Origin: Escherichia phage welsh | Length of the DNA: 45,207 nucleotides | Strand: one strand, 5' to 3' | Sequence record: NC_073078.1 | Shown here: positions 1,155-41,317 of the stretch, one piece after another | Numbering within the stretch: the stretch's first letter is position 1 | Layout: the number at the start of each line of letters is the position of its first letter | The notes under the pieces: generated by a model | The model's input: only the letters and a program-made list of their open reading frames with translations | The model's database searches: none | What the model was told of the DNA's origin: nothing | Translations under genes and position numbers: made by a program

Positions 1155-3797
1155 ATGGCAGATCAGGCAGCAGGCATCACGCTAAAGGCTGATGTTGCAC
1201 AAATCAGAACGGCAAATACTGTGCTGGACTCCTTCGCACAGAAATCCGAGAACACAGAAAACAAGGTTAAGAAATTAAACGACACCCTCGGCAAATCCAA
1301 AAAGGTGACGAGTGACGCCGCGGGCGGAATGGAAAAGCTGGCAAACGAATCGCAGCGCGCCGCCGATGGCATGACGAAACAGGAGCGACTCGCCAACAGG
1401 TTAGGGATGTCGACTAAAAACCTGGGCTTTGCCTCGCGTAACGCCGCATTCCAGCTACAGGATATTGCGGTAACGCTTGAGATGGGGATGCCGGTTCACC
1501 GCGTCATGCTTCAGCAGTTACCGCAGCTAACTGGGGCGTTCGGTGGACTGGGTAACACGCTGCGTTATGTTGCGGGCTTCCTCGGCCCAGTAGGGATCGG
1601 CCTCGCCGCCGTAACGGCAACGTTAGGCGTGGGCGTGGCAATTACGTCCCGCGCAGAGAACCAGGTCGCCGCGCTTAACAAGACGCTGGCGCTGTCAGGT
1701 AACATTTCCGGCCTCACTGCAAACCAGATCCTGGTGTTATCCGAGAACGCCGAGCGCATGGGCGGATCATTCCGCAAGACGCGTGACACAATCCAGGCGC
1801 TGGCGGCGGCGGGTGTGAAAGCGGGTGGTGACTTCGGCGCATTGGCTAAGGTAGTTAATGACTTTGCGAAGGTGTCCAGCCAGCCGATCGAGGATGTGGT
1901 AGCGGCGGTGGCGAAGCTGTCAACCGACCCCGTTGGCGGACTGCGTGCGCTGGCGGATAAGTATCACGTCGTAAACGAAGCGCAGATCCAGCAGGTGCAG
2001 TCACTAGTGACGGCTGGTCGCGAAACCGAAGCGGTGGCGCTGGCTAACAAAACAGCCGCAGCGTCGTTTACCACTATGACCAATGAGATCAAGTCCAACA
2101 TGGGTACGCTTGAGCGGTCGATGAACGTCGTTACATCGGCAGCTAAATCTATGTGGGATGCCATCCTGGATGTCGGGCGCGCGCAGTCCTCGAATGAGTC
2201 AGAGATGAAAGCGCGTGAATCATTGCAGCGACTGACCACGGCTTACTATGCCGAGATGAAAGCGGTAAACGCTGCCGGTGGGGTGATGACCGAAGCGCAG
2301 AAAGCGCGTATTAACATGCTTTACAGCGAACTGGTAGCCCAGGAAAAAGTAGTGGCGTCGCTCACCCTGCGCAACCGTGCAGAGCGAGACAACGCAAGTG
2401 CCGCTGACGAAGCAGCAAAGGCGAACGAAGAGGCAAACCGCACCGCCCGCGACCGCGCTGCGTTTGAGAAGGAGTACGCAACCAACGCGAAGAGGCGCGC
2501 CGACGAGATCGCCCGCCTCAATTTGCTTAATAAGCGCGGCGTGATTGACGAGAAAGAGCTTGCCGAGGCGGTGAAGCAGGTAAACGAGCGTTACAAAGAC
2601 CCCGCCCCGAAGAAGGCCGCCGCTGTTCGAGTCGATGCCGGGCTGAAAATGCTGGAGGTCGCACGGAGCGAACTGGCACAGCTTCGAGAATCAGGCAAGC
2701 AGATCGAAGCCAACGCATCGACGCAGACCCGCACGCAACGCGCTCAAGCGGCCCTAAACAAGCTGATCGCGGATAATGAGCAGTTAATCGCCGCAAGCAA
2801 AGAAAGAGCACTAACGGCAGCGGAAAAGCAGCAATTAGTCGAGTTCGGGCGCGTGAAGGAAGTCCGCGAGCAGATCGTCGAAGAAGCTAAATTGCTGGAC
2901 GCGAAAGAGAAGCAGGTCAAGGCGCACGCGCAGATCGACGCCTTCGTTAAGAACCAGAACGCCGAGCTAAAAGCAACCGCGGCGGGATATGCGCTTTCCA
3001 CTCGCGAAGCGGCTAACCTGCGCGAAGAATTGCAGCTAATTGACCGCCTGAAGCGGGTGGGCGCTAACGATACCGATATTGATCTGGCGGTGTCTAAGCT
3101 GCGCGAAGTGCAGGAAGCACAGACCGGTGCTAACGCCTCGCTATGGGATGGCTTCAGCCGCGGGCTTAAGGATAGCGTGGATGAAATGGGTAACGGCTAT
3201 ACGCAGATGACGTCACTCACAAAATTCACGTTCGGCGCTATGCAGGACACGATGAACAAGTTTTTCGAGACTGGCAAGCTGAACGCAAAGGATATGGTTA
3301 AATCCATCCTTAGCGAATTAATCAAGCTGGCTACATCGCAGGCGTTCAAGTCCATCGTTAGCGCTTTCGGTGGCGACGGCGGCAAAAACGGATTGTTCGG
3401 CGCTATCTTCTCGGGCCTCACTAAGAATGCGGACGGCGGAGCGTACGCAGGAGGCAATCTCGCGGCCTATTCGGGTAAAGTGGTAAGCCAGCCTACCTTT
3501 TTCAGTTATGGCGTCCAGGCGTTCGCTAAGGGCGCTGGGTTGATGGGTGAGGCTGGACCCGAGGCCATCATGCCACTGAAGCGCGGGCCGGACGGGAAAC
3601 TGGGCGTTGCCGCGTCTGGCGCAGGCGGTGGTATGGTCGTGACGACTAACGTTTACACGGGGACCGGTAAGACGGACACCAGTGTTAGCGGGCCAGACCC
3701 ACGTACCGCGCAGGCGTTCGGCAAGCAAATCACCGAGGCGGTGAAGTCCGAGATCGTGAAAGCGACTAAACCAGGTGGTGTACTTTACAAACGATGA
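1155..3797 (+). CDS. Tail tape measure protein
   Basis: 880 aa, Ala/Gln-rich coiled-coil character, hydrophobic Gly-rich C-terminal region, positioned after the chaperone gene; RBS AAGGGGA. Confidence 0.85.
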   Translation: MADQAAGITLKADVAQIRTANTVLDSFAQKSENTENKVKKLNDTLGKSKKVTSDAAGGMEKLANESQRAADGMTKQERLANRLGMSTKNLGFASRNAAFQLQDIAVTLEMGMPVHRVMLQQLPQLTGAFGGLGNTLRYVAGFLGPVGIGLAAVTATLGVGVAITSRAENQVAALNKTLALSGNISGLTANQILVLSENAERMGGSFRKTRDTIQALAAAGVKAGGDFGALAKVVNDFAKVSSQPIEDVVAAVAKLSTDPVGGLRALADKYHVVNEAQIQQVQSLVTAGRETEAVALANKTAAASFTTMTNEIKSNMGTLERSMNVVTSAAKSMWDAILDVGRAQSSNESEMKARESLQRLTTAYYAEMKAVNAAGGVMTEAQKARINMLYSELVAQEKVVASLTLRNRAERDNASAADEAAKANEEANRTARDRAAFEKEYATNAKRRADEIARLNLLNKRGVIDEKELAEAVKQVNERYKDPAPKKAAAVRVDAGLKMLEVARSELAQLRESGKQIEANASTQTRTQRAQAALNKLIADNEQLIAASKERALTAAEKQQLVEFGRVKEVREQIVEEAKLLDAKEKQVKAHAQIDAFVKNQNAELKATAAGYALSTREAANLREELQLIDRLKRVGANDTDIDLAVSKLREVQEAQTGANASLWDGFSRGLKDSVDEMGNGYTQMTSLTKFTFGAMQDTMNKFFETGKLNAKDMVKSILSELIKLATSQAFKSIVSAFGGDGGKNGLFGAIFSGLTKNADGGAYAGGNLAAYSGKVVSQPTFFSYGVQAFAKGAGLMGEAGPEAIMPLKRGPDGKLGVAASGAGGGMVVTTNVYTGTGKTDTSVSGPDPRTAQAFGKQITEAVKSEIVKATKPGGVLYKR

Positions 3798-29154: not shown

Positions 29155-29229
29155 ATTTTGCGCGCATTGGTTGCCGATATGGGAATTCCCATATCGCTAA
29201 AAGATTAAATTTTGCGCGCGTTGGTTGCC
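29146..29229. repeat. 30-bp direct repeats flanking a perfect 20-bp palindrome
   Basis: AAAGATTAAATTTTGCGCGC(A/G)TTGGTTGCC at about 29146-29175 and 29200-29229 (1 mismatch); GATATGGGAATTCCCATATC at about 29176-29195; the left repeat overlaps the primase stop codon. Confidence 0.8.
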
Positions 29230-29269
29230 ATTTTGGGTGTTTCTATCTGGTCGTATTGGTTGCCGTGTA

Positions 29270-29480
29270 GTGTAAATATAATGAATAGTTATGCAGTTTT
29301 ATTGCATAAAGTAAGCGGGACAAAAAGCGGGACAAACAAGGGGCGGGACAAAGCGGGACAGCACCCCCGTCCCGCCCCGGATGGCGCGGCTTCCAGAGGA
29401 GCGGGACAGCGGGACAGCACCCCAGTCTTTCAGACTAGACGGGGGTCAACGGCCCCCCTCGTCTGAGACTGAATAAAATC
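29270..29480. repeat. GCGGGACA box array, copy B, with the conserved 3' hairpin module
   Basis: Seven or more GCGGGAC boxes. About 29393-29477 is near-identical to copy A (about 1016-1090); the 39-bp stretch between box clusters differs in sequence but is the same length as in copy A. Confidence 0.8.
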
Positions 29481-29626
29481 CGGGGATTGCAAAATACACG
29501 GCAGCATGATGCGAAGCGCGGTCACGGATGAACTAGGCAACCAATGCGAGTTGCAGAATGGTGGGTGAAAAATGCAGTTTGCAGTCACAGCAGATAGCGA
29601 TCAACTTTTTCATGCGCGTGATTAAT

Positions 29627-29662
29627 ATTGGTTGCATTCGGCCTGGCACCTTGCTATATTGG
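29627..29662 (+). promoter_or_regulatory. Candidate promoter overlapping two ATTGGTTGCA motifs
   Basis: TTGCAT, 17 nt, TATATT, about 30 nt before ATG 29689. Confidence 0.35.
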
Positions 29663-31829: not shown

Positions 31830-32065
31830 TTATCGCCATCCTGTTATTAGTGATCGGGGCTTCGTCGCTGTATAACGTATACGCGCCATCCGTCCAGGAT
31901 GGCATTTGCGGACGGGTGCTCTACCTGCTTACAGCAATGACCTGTATTATTGGCCTGATGCAAACGGGGGACGTATCGAATACAGTCTGGTCCGTGCTAA
32001 TCTGGCTATTCGCATTACGCACACTGCGTAATGCTGTTTTAAATGGGGTAAAACATGCGATTTAG
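31826..32065 (+). CDS. Second small membrane protein of the lysis cassette (holin or antiholin candidate)
   Basis: 79 aa with two or three hydrophobic segments; overlaps both neighbours. Confidence 0.45.
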   Translation: MIIAILLLVIGASSLYNVYAPSVQDGICGRVLYLLTAMTCIIGLMQTGDVSNTVWSVLIWLFALRTLRNAVLNGVKHAI

Positions 32066-32546
32066 TGACAACGGTCTAAGATTTACGGCAGCGTGGGAGT
32101 CGTTCAGCCCAGTGCCGTATTTCGCGACTAAGAAGGAGCAGGCCCGCGGCTTGTACACCTGGGGCTATGGTCACACCGGCACTAATCCGCCACGAAGCAT
32201 TACCCGTGCGGAAGCGCTGGAACTGCTCAAGCGAGATGTGGCGTATGCCGAGGACTGGGTGAACAAATACGCACATCCGAGCATTAACCAGGCGCAATTC
32301 GACGCGCTGGTGGATCTGGTAATCAACGCCGGTCCGGGTCCGATCGTACCGGATGACGTCTCGAACGACTTTGATGATGCGGTGCGACGGGGAGACTGGG
32401 AGAAGGTCCGTGCTATTCTGCCGCAGTTCCGCAAGCAAGGCGGGTCGGTGCTCTTAGGTCTGGTCCGTCGCGCAATTGGCAGACAGGCGCTATTCGATGG
32501 TAAGCAGTGGGACGTTGCCGAGCGAATCGGGCGTAACGCAGCATAA
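32055..32546 (+). CDS. Endolysin, GH24 lysozyme (T4/P22 type)
   Basis: FSDNGLRFTAAWESF...GLYTWGYGHTG and INQAQFDALVDLVINAG match the lysozyme-like catalytic region and conserved helix. Confidence 0.85.
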   Translation: MRFSDNGLRFTAAWESFSPVPYFATKKEQARGLYTWGYGHTGTNPPRSITRAEALELLKRDVAYAEDWVNKYAHPSINQAQFDALVDLVINAGPGPIVPDDVSNDFDDAVRRGDWEKVRAILPQFRKQGGSVLLGLVRRAIGRQALFDGKQWDVAERIGRNAA

Positions 32547-32562
32547 TACGAGGTAACACAGT

Positions 32563-32730
32563 ATGTTAAAAAGCATTCTTGATCATAACGCTGACGCGCT
32601 CGCCGCGCTGGCTAAAACCGAAGACCCTGGCGCACGCGCTATCATCGCGGACACTATCAGCCATGCAGGCGTCTTTGACGCGAAGTTGCCGAGTCCGCCA
32701 CCGCCGGAAGAACCAGGCCCCGCAGCGTAA
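32563..32730 (+). CDS. Hypothetical small protein (55 aa)
   Basis: GAGG RBS; Pro-rich C-terminus; followed by a strong terminator. Confidence 0.4.
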   Translation: MLKSILDHNADALAALAKTEDPGARAIIADTISHAGVFDAKLPSPPPPEEPGPAA

Positions 32731-32736
32731 ACAATC

Positions 32737-32764
32737 AAGCCCGGATAATACCGGGCTTTTTATT
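32737..32764 (+). terminator. Rho-independent terminator after the lysis cassette
   Basis: AGCCCGG-ataata-CCGGGCT followed by TTTTTATT. Confidence 0.7.
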
Positions 32765-32825
32765 GCTTGACTCGCAACCAACACAGGGGCCATACTGCAA
32801 CCAATCAACGAGAGGAGTAATCAAG

Positions 32826-32906
32826 ATGGCACGTAAAGATATTTGGGTATTAGCAATCTGGACCACCGCGGCTTTTATCGGCATGGTTATTTGCGAATTG
32901 ATATAG
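32826..32906 (+). CDS. Small hydrophobic peptide (26 aa)
   Basis: MARKDIWVLAIWTTAAFIGMVICELI; GAGAGGAG RBS; preceded by a promoter-like TTGACT-17-CATACT. Confidence 0.3.
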   Translation: MARKDIWVLAIWTTAAFIGMVICELI

Positions 32907-32967
32907 CCCGCCGCCATACGGACCGTGGTATATTGTCCACGGTCCCATAATCAGGAAGTGGATTAAT

Positions 32968-34110
32968 ATGCACCCGCAAACTAAAATCACCGACGAGCAA
33001 TTGATCGCCGAGTTGCAATCCGGCACTACCGCGAAAGAGATTGCGAAGAAGTACGGCCTTTCCCTACGAAACGTCTACATGCGCAAAGCCCGCCTGTCGA
33101 AGAAAGGTATTGGTCACGGTAACGATGCCGTAATCCGTAAGCGCGTTGCCGATGGATTCGGTGTTAAGCGCGTATCCGCCCTGGTGCGCGGCAATGGCGA
33201 AGAGGTCATGTCGTGGGTCATCACTGAGCAGGACAAGGAGCGCCAACTCGAAGCTATGCGCGCTGTCGTCGAGGGTATGAACAGCGAAATCACACCGGCA
33301 GCACCAGTAAACGCCCCGCCAGTCCCGATCCAGGCGCTCGACTTGCTCAACCTGTACACCGTGTCGGACTTCCACCTGGGGATGTTGGCATGGGGCGAAG
33401 AGACTGGCGAAGATTGGGATATGGCGATCGCCGAAGACCTGTTCTACCGCTGGTTTGTCGAAGCCTTCGCCCGCGCACCGGACGCAGGCACTGCCGTAAT
33501 TAATATCCTCGGTGATATGGCGCACTTTGATAGCCTTGATGCCGTCACCCCCGCCAGCGGACACATACTGGACGCGGATACCCGCTACCAGAAACTGGTC
33601 CGCTACATGATTCGCATGGTGCGCAACGTGGTGGAACTGGCGCTGCAAAAACACCACAAAGTCAAACTGCTAATCGTCCAGGGTAATCATGACGAGTCTG
33701 GCATGATTTGGCTGGCTGAAATGTTCAATACCCTGTACGAGAACGAGCCGCGCGTCGATGTGGACACGTCGCCGGATGTCTACAAAATGGTGCAGCACGG
33801 TAAAACAACGCTGTTCTTCCACCACGGGCACAAAGCGCGCTTCGATGCTATCGAAACCGTCATGATTTCTAAATTCAGACAGGCTTTCGGATCCAGCGAG
33901 TACAGCTACGCGCATGTAGGCCACTTGCACCACCAGAAGATTGTTGAATCCCGCAACATGATTGTTGAACAGCACCGGACGCTCGCAGCGAAAGACGCCT
34001 ACGCCAGCCGTGGCGGATGGATGTCAGGTCGTAGTGCCAACGTCATTACCTACAGCGCCAACTACGGCGAAGTAGCGCGCTTAACCATTAGCCCGGAAAT
34101 GTTGAAGTAA
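32968..34110 (+). CDS. HTH domain fused to a calcineurin-like metallophosphoesterase
   Basis: N-terminal AKEIAKKYGLSLRNVYMRKARL is HTH-like; phosphoesterase motifs DFHLG, GDMAHFD, QGNHDE, HHGH and GHLHH. Confidence 0.65.
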   Translation: MHPQTKITDEQLIAELQSGTTAKEIAKKYGLSLRNVYMRKARLSKKGIGHGNDAVIRKRVADGFGVKRVSALVRGNGEEVMSWVITEQDKERQLEAMRAVVEGMNSEITPAAPVNAPPVPIQALDLLNLYTVSDFHLGMLAWGEETGEDWDMAIAEDLFYRWFVEAFARAPDAGTAVINILGDMAHFDSLDAVTPASGHILDADTRYQKLVRYMIRMVRNVVELALQKHHKVKLLIVQGNHDESGMIWLAEMFNTLYENEPRVDVDTSPDVYKMVQHGKTTLFFHHGHKARFDAIETVMISKFRQAFGSSEYSYAHVGHLHHQKIVESRNMIVEQHRTLAAKDAYASRGGWMSGRSANVITYSANYGEVARLTISPEMLK

Positions 34111-34128
34111 CGGCAACCCATAAGCCTC

Positions 34129-34157
34129 CCAGCCCGCCGATTTGGTGGGCTTTTTTG
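34129..34157 (+). terminator. Rho-independent terminator upstream of the terminase genes
   Basis: AGCCCGCC-gattt-GGTGGGCT followed by TTTTTTG, then an extended -10 like TGTTATAAT. Confidence 0.55.
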
Positions 34158-34219
34158 TGCCTGTTATAATCCCCCTTAGATGGCAGGGCCGTCTCCTATG
34201 TTGCCGAGGGTCGGCGCAT

Positions 34220-34792
34220 ATGAACAAAAGGGCTTATATCATGGCAGAAATCAAAGTTAAGGGCCGACGCGCCAAACTGGACGGACGAGTAGCAGTAACC
34301 CCTCGCCGTAAACCAGGCGAGCAAACCGAGCATACCAATCTCGGACCTGAAATCGAGTACGGCAAGCGCCGTAAAGGCGGCAAATGTGGACGCCCTACTG
34401 ACTACCGATCCGTTTACTGCGACCAGCTTCGCCGCTATTTTGCCGATGCCGACGCCTGGCAGGTCAATTACTCCGATAAAGGCGCTGCGCAAGTAATCCC
34501 CCGCAACAAAATGCCAACCTTCGGTCGATTTGCCGCTGAAATCGGCGTAGGCGTAGCTTGCCTGTACCGCTGGGCGCGAGCACATGAGGAGTTTGCCGAA
34601 GCGATGGCGGACGCAATGGAACTGCAGAAAACTTTCCTGATGGAAGCCGGTGGCGTGACCATCGCGGCAGGCTTCGCTACGTTCCTGCTTAAAGCAAACC
34701 ACGGCGTCCGCGACGATGTACCGCTGGATGACGACGAAGATGATAACGGCGACGTAGTTGTCGAACCTTCCGGCAAAGGTCAGGGTGAATAA
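34220..34792 (+). CDS. Terminase small subunit
   Basis: ATG 34220 with GAGGG RBS; basic N-terminus; directly upstream of and overlapping the large subunit. Confidence 0.55.
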   Translation: MNKRAYIMAEIKVKGRRAKLDGRVAVTPRRKPGEQTEHTNLGPEIEYGKRRKGGKCGRPTDYRSVYCDQLRRYFADADAWQVNYSDKGAAQVIPRNKMPTFGRFAAEIGVGVACLYRWARAHEEFAEAMADAMELQKTFLMEAGGVTIAAGFATFLLKANHGVRDDVPLDDDEDDNGDVVVEPSGKGQGE

Positions 34793-41220: not shown

Positions 41221-41317
41221 GCAGATTGCCCGCGAAAGCGGGCAATTTTGCGAGCGCGTAAAACTAAGGTAACATTAACGTCACTGGGCGAATGCTCACA
41301 ACTCAAAGGATTTAGAT

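Follow-up and report, generated by a model that had tools for sequence, protein, structure and literature searches.

A helix-turn-helix metallophosphoesterase gene ahead of the terminase genes of Escherichia phage welsh: a candidate nuclease of a widespread phage family

The locus and its features

The window analyzed here is the whole 45,207-nucleotide stretch of record NC_073078.1 from Escherichia phage welsh; at 45.2 kb it is an essentially complete Dhillonvirus genome. Megablast with the segment from 32700 to 34300 matched 166 phage records, nearly all of them Escherichia Dhillonvirus at 92-94% identity (e.g. SECphi4, bob and BF9). Its main occupant is a gene for a helix-turn-helix (HTH) metallophosphoesterase (MPE), referred to below as HTH-MPE, which lies between the lysis genes and the terminase genes. 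The features of the locus are as follows.

31539: holin, upstream of the HTH-MPE gene
31826: second holin, upstream of the HTH-MPE gene
32055-32546: endolysin, upstream of the HTH-MPE gene
32563-32730: ORF of 55 amino acids, upstream of the HTH-MPE gene
32737-32766, + strand: intrinsic terminator at the end of the lysis operon, a stem at 32737-32758 with a T-run after it
32767-32805, + strand: promoter-like site P1, TTGACT-18-CATACT, with two copies of the motif (T/C)GCAACCAA(T/C), at 32773 and 32796
32826-32906, + strand: unannotated hydrophobic mini-ORF of 26 amino acids (MARKDIWVLAIWTTAAFIGMVICELI) with a strong ribosome-binding site, GAGAGGAG
32920-32945, + strand: perfect 9-bp inverted repeat with an 8-nt spacer
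32926-32934, + strand: P2, predicted extended -10 promoter element TGGTATATT, at the centre of an invariant upstream block
32953-32958, + strand: Shine-Dalgarno sequence AGGAAG of the HTH-MPE gene
32968-34110, + strand: HTH-MPE gene, ATG start, 380 amino acids, PHROG 704
32989-33111, + strand: N-terminal HTH resembling LuxR/GerE and sigma-70 region 4, residues 8-48 (Pfam, AlphaFold and family profiles)
33157-33285, + strand: linker module, a long beta-hairpin (residues 64-88) followed by a helix (residues 90-106) (AlphaFold)
33343-34107, + strand: binuclear metallophosphoesterase domain, residues 126-380, with invariant D134, H136, D183, N240, H241, H286 and H321
34131-34158, + strand: intrinsic terminator closing the HTH-MPE transcription unit (hairpin 34131-34151 plus T-run)
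34162-34170, + strand: perfect extended -10 TGTTATAAT ahead of terS, outside the HTH-MPE gene
34241-34792, + strand: terminase small subunit (TerS), followed by TerL and portal

The first-pass annotation had described a 380-residue protein with an N-terminal HTH and a full set of metallophosphoesterase motifs, and this is borne out: the ORF at 32968-34110 is real and its active site is intact. The position just upstream of the terminase genes is likewise correct, since TerS, TerL and portal follow, but the intrinsic terminator with its hairpin and T-run intervenes. The element TGTTATAAT lies directly after this terminator, about 70 nt before terS, and is conserved in the related phage KarlBarth; host RNA polymerase may thus be able to initiate transcription of the packaging operon at this point. 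The AGGAAG Shine-Dalgarno sequence is kept in most Dhillonvirus relatives, and that of the Jerseyvirus relatives is similar. A terminator-like hairpin was also seen in the second holin gene, immediately ahead of where the endolysin begins. The gene has already served as a genus core marker under the label 'hypothetical protein', and a Dhillonvirus-specific qPCR forward primer matches the window exactly at 33957-33980, inside the HTH-MPE gene (PMC12845203).

The protein, its family and their genomic context

All five metallophosphoesterase motifs are present: SDFHLG (D134, H136), LGDMAHFD (D183, H186), QGNHDE (N240, H241), FFHHGHK (H285, H286, H288) and VGHLHH (H319, H321). An alignment of 83 relatives with 32-81% identity shows no variation at D134, H136, G182, D183, T194, N240, H241, H286, G318 and H321; the active site is thus intact and under selection. 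Motif I of the form SDFHLG together with GNHD in motif III is the style of Mre11 and SbcD. The GDxVDRG and GNHE motifs of the PPP protein phosphatases, to which lambda PPase belongs, are absent from the protein, which has SDFHLG and GNHD in their place. The Pfam matches fell below the gathering thresholds (22.4 versus 27 bits for Metallophos_2, 20.1 versus 21.5 for Metallophos), and the sole MPE match in NCBIfam was the endonuclease PdeM. Judged by sequence profiles, the protein is a member of a divergent MPE subfamily.

For the HTH, searches with the single protein gave weak, sub-threshold Pfam matches at residues 8-48 (HTH_28, E=0.01; GerE, E=0.024), and a profile search of PDB sequences returned GerE/LuxR-type regulators for the N-terminus, also sub-threshold (GerE, E=0.014). 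The N-termini of the family match Sigma70_r4_2 (1.5e-9), GerE (2.4e-8), HTH_1, HTH_8 and others, and AlphaFold places helices in this region at residues 9-17, 22-29 and 33-45. On the strength of the profile matches, the HTH is considered genuine across the family.

Modelled by AlphaFold from the 83-sequence alignment with high confidence (pLDDT 94, pTM 0.82), the protein is predicted to have a beta-sandwich MPE fold. A Foldseek search of the PDB with this model placed Mre11 first, then PolD DP1, MjMre11 and Rv0805, all at 10-14% identity; protein phosphatases rank far below the nucleases PolD-DP1, Mre11 and SbcD as structural neighbors. For the catalytic part, the best MPE matches of the PDB profile search were Mre11 and a Pseudomonas putida MPE nuclease, with weak E-values of 0.46-0.86. 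No close solved structure was found (best identities 10-18%), a search of BFVD found viral relatives only, all of them uncharacterized, and a PDB sequence search with the single protein was set aside, as its only matches were spurious repeat proteins. Pfam and NCBIfam hold no Mre11- or SbcD-specific domain match, and the PDB profile match of E=0.46 covers about 65 residues. No Rad50/SbcC partner flanks the gene in the window, and the annotations of T1 and of the complete KarlBarth genome list none. Three independent rankings of sequence and predicted structure favor a nucleic-acid phosphodiesterase, by modest margins. The structure prediction and active-site comparison proposed at first pass thus found an intact site with Mre11, SbcD and DP1 nearest and the lambda PPase motifs absent. 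Among the three activities then offered, nuclease is the one favored by the structure and sequence rankings, whereas protein phosphatases place far lower and cyclic-nucleotide phosphodiesterases are outranked.

Over its full length the protein matches PHROG 704 (E=2.7e-161), a family annotated as 'DNA repair exonuclease'; residues 5-380 align with profile positions 2-390 of 390. An exhaustive HMMER search collected 4,674 cluster representatives at 50% identity, mostly of 370-420 amino acids and aligned almost end to end, and relatives turned up by tblastn in 2,061 phage records, with coverage of the protein of at least 80% in 1,668 of them. Identities in the tblastn search were 95-99% in Dhillonvirus, 72-76% in Kagunavirus/Jerseyvirus and 43-47% in Drexlerviridae; the distant relatives were found in Rhodobacter Casjensviridae (38%), N4-like Vibrio phages (34%) and Campylobacter phages. 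Although the fusion of an HTH to a phosphoesterase had been regarded as atypical, it is typical for PHROG 704, as shown by the end-to-end match to this profile, the 1,668 records at the coverage just given and the alignment of T1 gp16 from residue 3 onwards. Because full-length matches extend across so wide a range of phages, the alignments identify the fusion as the ancestral architecture of the family, one that is already routinely annotated.

The genomic setting of the gene varies. In the Jerseyvirus Shelanagig it is part of a small island on the opposite strand, bounded by terminators and set among the tail genes, where its neighbors are an antirepressor and a superinfection-immunity gene resembling T4 Imm. 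In both Hanrivervirus damhaus and T1 its place is after a helicase / VRR-NUC / Dam block and before the holin; RcLkye has it behind the lysis genes, and an N4-like Vibrio phage carries it in the early region. A pangenome study found an exonuclease-holin-endolysin-spanin module in 508 of 522 Drexlerviridae, often with a dNMP kinase or polynucleotide kinase directly downstream of the gene (PMC13164509). What recurs beside the gene is a lysis cassette or moron island rather than the terminase. Adjacency to the packaging genes, which had been offered as a functional clue, is therefore not a useful one, as this synteny is confined to Dhillonvirus and phage KarlBarth grows without the gene. The small genes 3' to the MPE gene in Dhillonvirus and in Jerseyvirus were considered as a conserved partner and rejected, being unrelated.

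Within Dhillonvirus, the terminase was found in 155 records and the HTH-MPE gene in about 153. No HTH-MPE gene was detected by tblastn in the Dhillonvirus KarlBarth of the BASEL collection, in which it is naturally replaced by a 56-aa ORF (NC_073057, 42608-42987). The gene is near-universal in Dhillonvirus yet dispensable for growth on E. coli K-12, and the viability of KarlBarth without it argues against an essential role in packaging or replication. The BASEL text mentions no phenotype specific to KarlBarth. Retention in 153 of 155 fits a general function and does not identify one. Next after the 56-aa ORF, KarlBarth has a 70-aa ORF (PHROG 20931), which in about 70 other Dhillonvirus records overlaps the MPE stop codon and is absent from the window.

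The upstream region

The inverted repeat GGACCGTGG-n8-CCACGGTCC is exact and unique in the window; it lies at 32920-32945, one base from the 32919-32944 first reported. As had been noted, no U-tract follows, the tail being CATAATCAGG. The repeat has a predicted RNA hairpin of -18.4 kcal/mol and was considered as an intrinsic terminator, a role rejected given this tail and the absence of the repeat from the list of the terminator scan. Rfam returned only sub-threshold terminator look-alikes. Perfect 9-bp repeats with loops of 3-12 number 6 in the window versus 2.4 +/- 1.8 in shuffled sequences, and a single one is not beyond chance on its own. Other perfect inverted repeats of at least 9 bp were seen at 29175-29196, 41225-41246 and 32012-32034; one of them is CGATATGGG-AATT-CCCATATCG, in the motif-rich intergenic region at 29.1-29.7 kb, and another is the terminator-like hairpin of the second holin gene.

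When the upstream regions of 20 Dhillonvirus loci were compared, the sole invariant block was CC(G/A)TG(G/A)TATATTG, which corresponds to the inner half of the left arm and the spacer. The right arm varies without compensation. Pairs in register range from 4 to 9 and hairpin energies from -19.5 to -1.9 kcal/mol, while the protein remains identical at 366-379 of 380 residues (96-100%). In ZCEC10, 379 of 380 residues and the entire N-terminal 60 amino acids are identical and only 5 pairs are left. The palindrome had been proposed as an operator for the HTH; since the arms decay to 4-6 pairs beside a near-identical protein, the repeat is not a conserved operator of this domain. In this comparison of sequences the palindrome is lineage-specific.

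The conserved part of the region is instead the extended -10, TG(G/A)TATATT, which lies 34 nt before the ATG and is invariant in all Dhillonvirus variants examined. In the Envy-type phages a terminator ends 25-28 nt upstream, and from there to the ribosome-binding site nothing but TG(G/A)TATATT is conserved. We predict from this conservation that it is a sigma-70 extended -10 promoter.

Loci in which the mini-ORF or another ORF reads into the repeat have a strong hairpin (-14.5 to -19.5); with nothing but a P1-like promoter in between it is intermediate (-10 to -13), and next to an abutting terminator there is essentially none (-1.9 to -4.9). Because hairpin strength follows the upstream architecture in this way, a role at the RNA level on read-through transcripts is suggested, such as 3'-end protection of the mini-gene or insulation, though the correlation spans only about three lineages and so carries little weight. 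In L018 (IMG/VR UViG_645948515, about 2904-3000), the mini-ORF has been fused by a deletion; its frame continues across the repeat and stops directly ahead of the MPE start codon. Codon differences between the mini-ORF at 32826-32906 and its relatives are mostly synonymous, with 9 synonymous to 4 non-synonymous against KarlBarth. T1, damhaus and L086 each have a comparable tiny hydrophobic ORF, of 23, 29 and 26 aa respectively, immediately in front of the homologue; in Jerseyviruses its place is taken by an Imm-like membrane protein.

A second candidate target for the HTH had been the motif TGCAACCAAT, which is over-represented in the window, with 17 sites at no more than one mismatch versus 3.5 expected. 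The sites (11289, 14993/15005, 16902/16919, 19864/19876, 26352, 29166-29658, 30212, 32773/32796 and 40393/40406) are mostly intergenic; many lie near promoters, in pairs 13-31 bp apart that abut -10-like hexamers. By its distribution, TGCAACCAAT looks like a phage-wide operator or promoter element. KarlBarth, which lacks HTH-MPE, has 9 exact and 15 near copies, so the HTH-MPE protein is not needed for the role of the motif, and TGCAACCAAT does not hold up as its target. A similar sequence, TGCAACTC(G/A)AA, was seen upstream of the homologue in Kagunavirus/Jerseyvirus loci.

Possible functions and relation to known systems

The interpretation we prefer, with a probability of about one half, is that the protein is an independently transcribed, DNA-tethered, Mn-dependent nuclease that acts in DNA metabolism or host takeover. 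A LuxR/sigma-4-type HTH would tether a binuclear-metal phosphodiesterase like Mre11, SbcD and DP1 to DNA, and the catalytic domain would most likely be a Mn2+-dependent nuclease. The gene would form its own transcription unit, on which host RNA polymerase may start at the extended -10 TGGTATATT. Given this promoter and the intrinsic terminators on either side, the gene is probably expressed independently of the late operon and, as far as timing can be read from sequence alone, may be expressed early. In the leading form of this proposal the host chromosome would be broken down for nucleotide salvage, in keeping with the dNMP-kinase neighbors and the precedents of mycobacteriophage gp48 and T5 A1 described below; DNA-end processing comes second. 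The protein would not be a packaging factor, and the palindrome would more likely act as an RNA hairpin on read-through from the upstream mini-gene, straddling the -10 by happenstance. Against the nuclease model count the absence of a Rad50/SbcC partner and of a recognized capping domain, and the need for the phage DNA to be spared by some means.

A possible but clearly weaker candidate is Mre11-like processing of DNA ends for recombination-dependent replication or concatemer formation rather than destruction of host DNA. The closest folds are those of Mre11, SbcD and DP1; in T1-like phages the gene comes after the helicase / VRR-NUC / Dam block, and the phage also encodes a PD-(D/E)XK nuclease, an SSB and helicases. 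However, there is no Rad50/SbcC partner, the gene is apart from the replication module in Dhillonvirus, Jerseyvirus and RcLkye, and KarlBarth replicates without it.

More doubtful, and drawn by analogy, is the idea that the HTH-nuclease and the membrane peptide encoded ahead of it make up one compact, widespread module for host takeover or superinfection exclusion comparable to A2, T5.005 and A1 of phage T5. An early, DNA-tethered, Mre11-like nuclease independent of Rad50 would then destroy host or competitor DNA. Degradation of host DNA is classically reported for T1-like phages, and such a module, if real, would account for it.

It is unlikely that the protein is primarily a transcription regulator, acting through its HTH on the palindrome (autoregulation) or on the TGCAACCAAT sites with the enzyme domain secondary. 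HTHs of the LuxR/sigma-4 type, which this one resembles, bind inverted repeats as dimers, and the arms of the repeat flank the -10 element. Nevertheless, phages whose protein is 96-100% identical may have as few as 4-6 pairs left (-1.9 to -4.9 kcal/mol), ZCEC10 with its 5 pairs among them, KarlBarth keeps the TGCAACCAAT sites without the protein, and the catalytic residues are invariant.

We give still less credence to an anti-defence phosphodiesterase that destroys cyclic (oligo)nucleotide immune signals. The HTH fusion would be unexplained in an enzyme for small molecules, nucleases stand above phosphodiesterases in every ranking, PADLOC found no match, and conservation this broad is unusual for a narrow counter-defence. 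To our knowledge, the known anti-CBASS and anti-Pycsar enzymes use other folds, which also counts against this explanation.

Very improbable is an end-healing enzyme (a 3'-phosphatase or 2',3'-cyclic phosphodiesterase) or a protein phosphatase like that of lambda. In its favor, a polynucleotide kinase gene directly follows the MPE gene in some Drexlerviridae (PMC13164509), and end healing by the metallophosphoesterase domains of CthPnkp and lambda phosphatase is described in PMC2190708. The least probable proposal, an accessory nuclease that helps the terminase to cut pac or concatemer DNA in the manner of the HNH proteins beside terminases, has the DNA-binding domain and the place directly upstream of terS/terL in Dhillonvirus on its side, but a terminator separates the gene from terS, Jerseyvirus, T1-like phages, RcLkye and N4-like phages do not share the adjacency, and KarlBarth has a similar terminase and no such gene.

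The locus is an ordinary copy of a very common, annotated but uncharacterized phage family, with nothing unusual in the window. Of the features first flagged as atypical, the fusion is typical, the terminase adjacency is genus-specific and the palindrome is not conserved. The interest lies in the function of the family rather than in this locus: it is near-core in several large groups of virulent siphoviruses (Drexlerviridae, Dhillonvirus, Jerseyvirus/Kagunavirus and T1), and its carriers include common therapy and model phages. A decision between host DNA degradation, end processing and counter-defence would fill a real gap in annotation, and KarlBarth is a ready natural knockout.

Reports on related phages touch on the gene only in part. 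In the transcriptome of Kagunavirus K1B4, the likely homologue is gene 044 (1,131 nt, syntenic), for which no timing is reported; the early 'HTH' gene 008 was rejected as a homologue, being only 60 aa. An anti-Tmn paper on Dhillonvirus concerns another gene, ORF35, and a preprint on m6-dAMP does not mention the HTH-MPE gene.

Among known systems, the Mre11 and SbcD nucleases are 13-18% identical to the protein, which differs in its N-terminal HTH and in lacking a Rad50/SbcC partner and a family-specific Pfam domain. The archaeal PolD DP1 proofreading exonuclease is 13% identical; here there is no DP2 partner, and T1-like phages with the gene have no polymerase of their own. The mycobacteriophage proteins A10ZJ24 gp48 and Bxb1 gp47 are, like the present protein, phage metallophosphoesterases with five motifs, and gp48 has phosphodiesterase activity, damages host DNA and is expressed early (PMC12287305). 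Bxb1 gp47 was rejected as a homologue (PHROG 221, 255 aa, no HTH; hhalign probability 2%), as was T5 A1, which matches PHROG 1745 only (hhalign probability 20% over 19 columns). With neither detectably in the family, no function can be transferred from them by homology.

The likeness to T5 A1 and A2, which serve pre-early host DNA degradation and second-step transfer, is thus an analogy in function only. The database record of A1 states that it degrades host DNA. In T5 the MPE-type A1 is encoded together with the DNA-binding A2 and the small membrane protein T5.005, whereas here the HTH is fused to the enzyme and a tiny membrane ORF lies upstream. The nearest well-known counterpart is gp16 (ST16) of coliphage T1, also PHROG 704, which is 45% identical from residue 3 to the end, HTH included. 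T1 'gene 2.5', implicated in host DNA degradation, is perhaps gp16, an assumption of ours to which the physical map lends no obvious support. The two genes are alike in forming their own unit that ends in a terminator and in having a tiny hydrophobic ORF just upstream, but the gene order differs: in T1-like phages the gene precedes the holin, and here it follows the endolysin and precedes terS.
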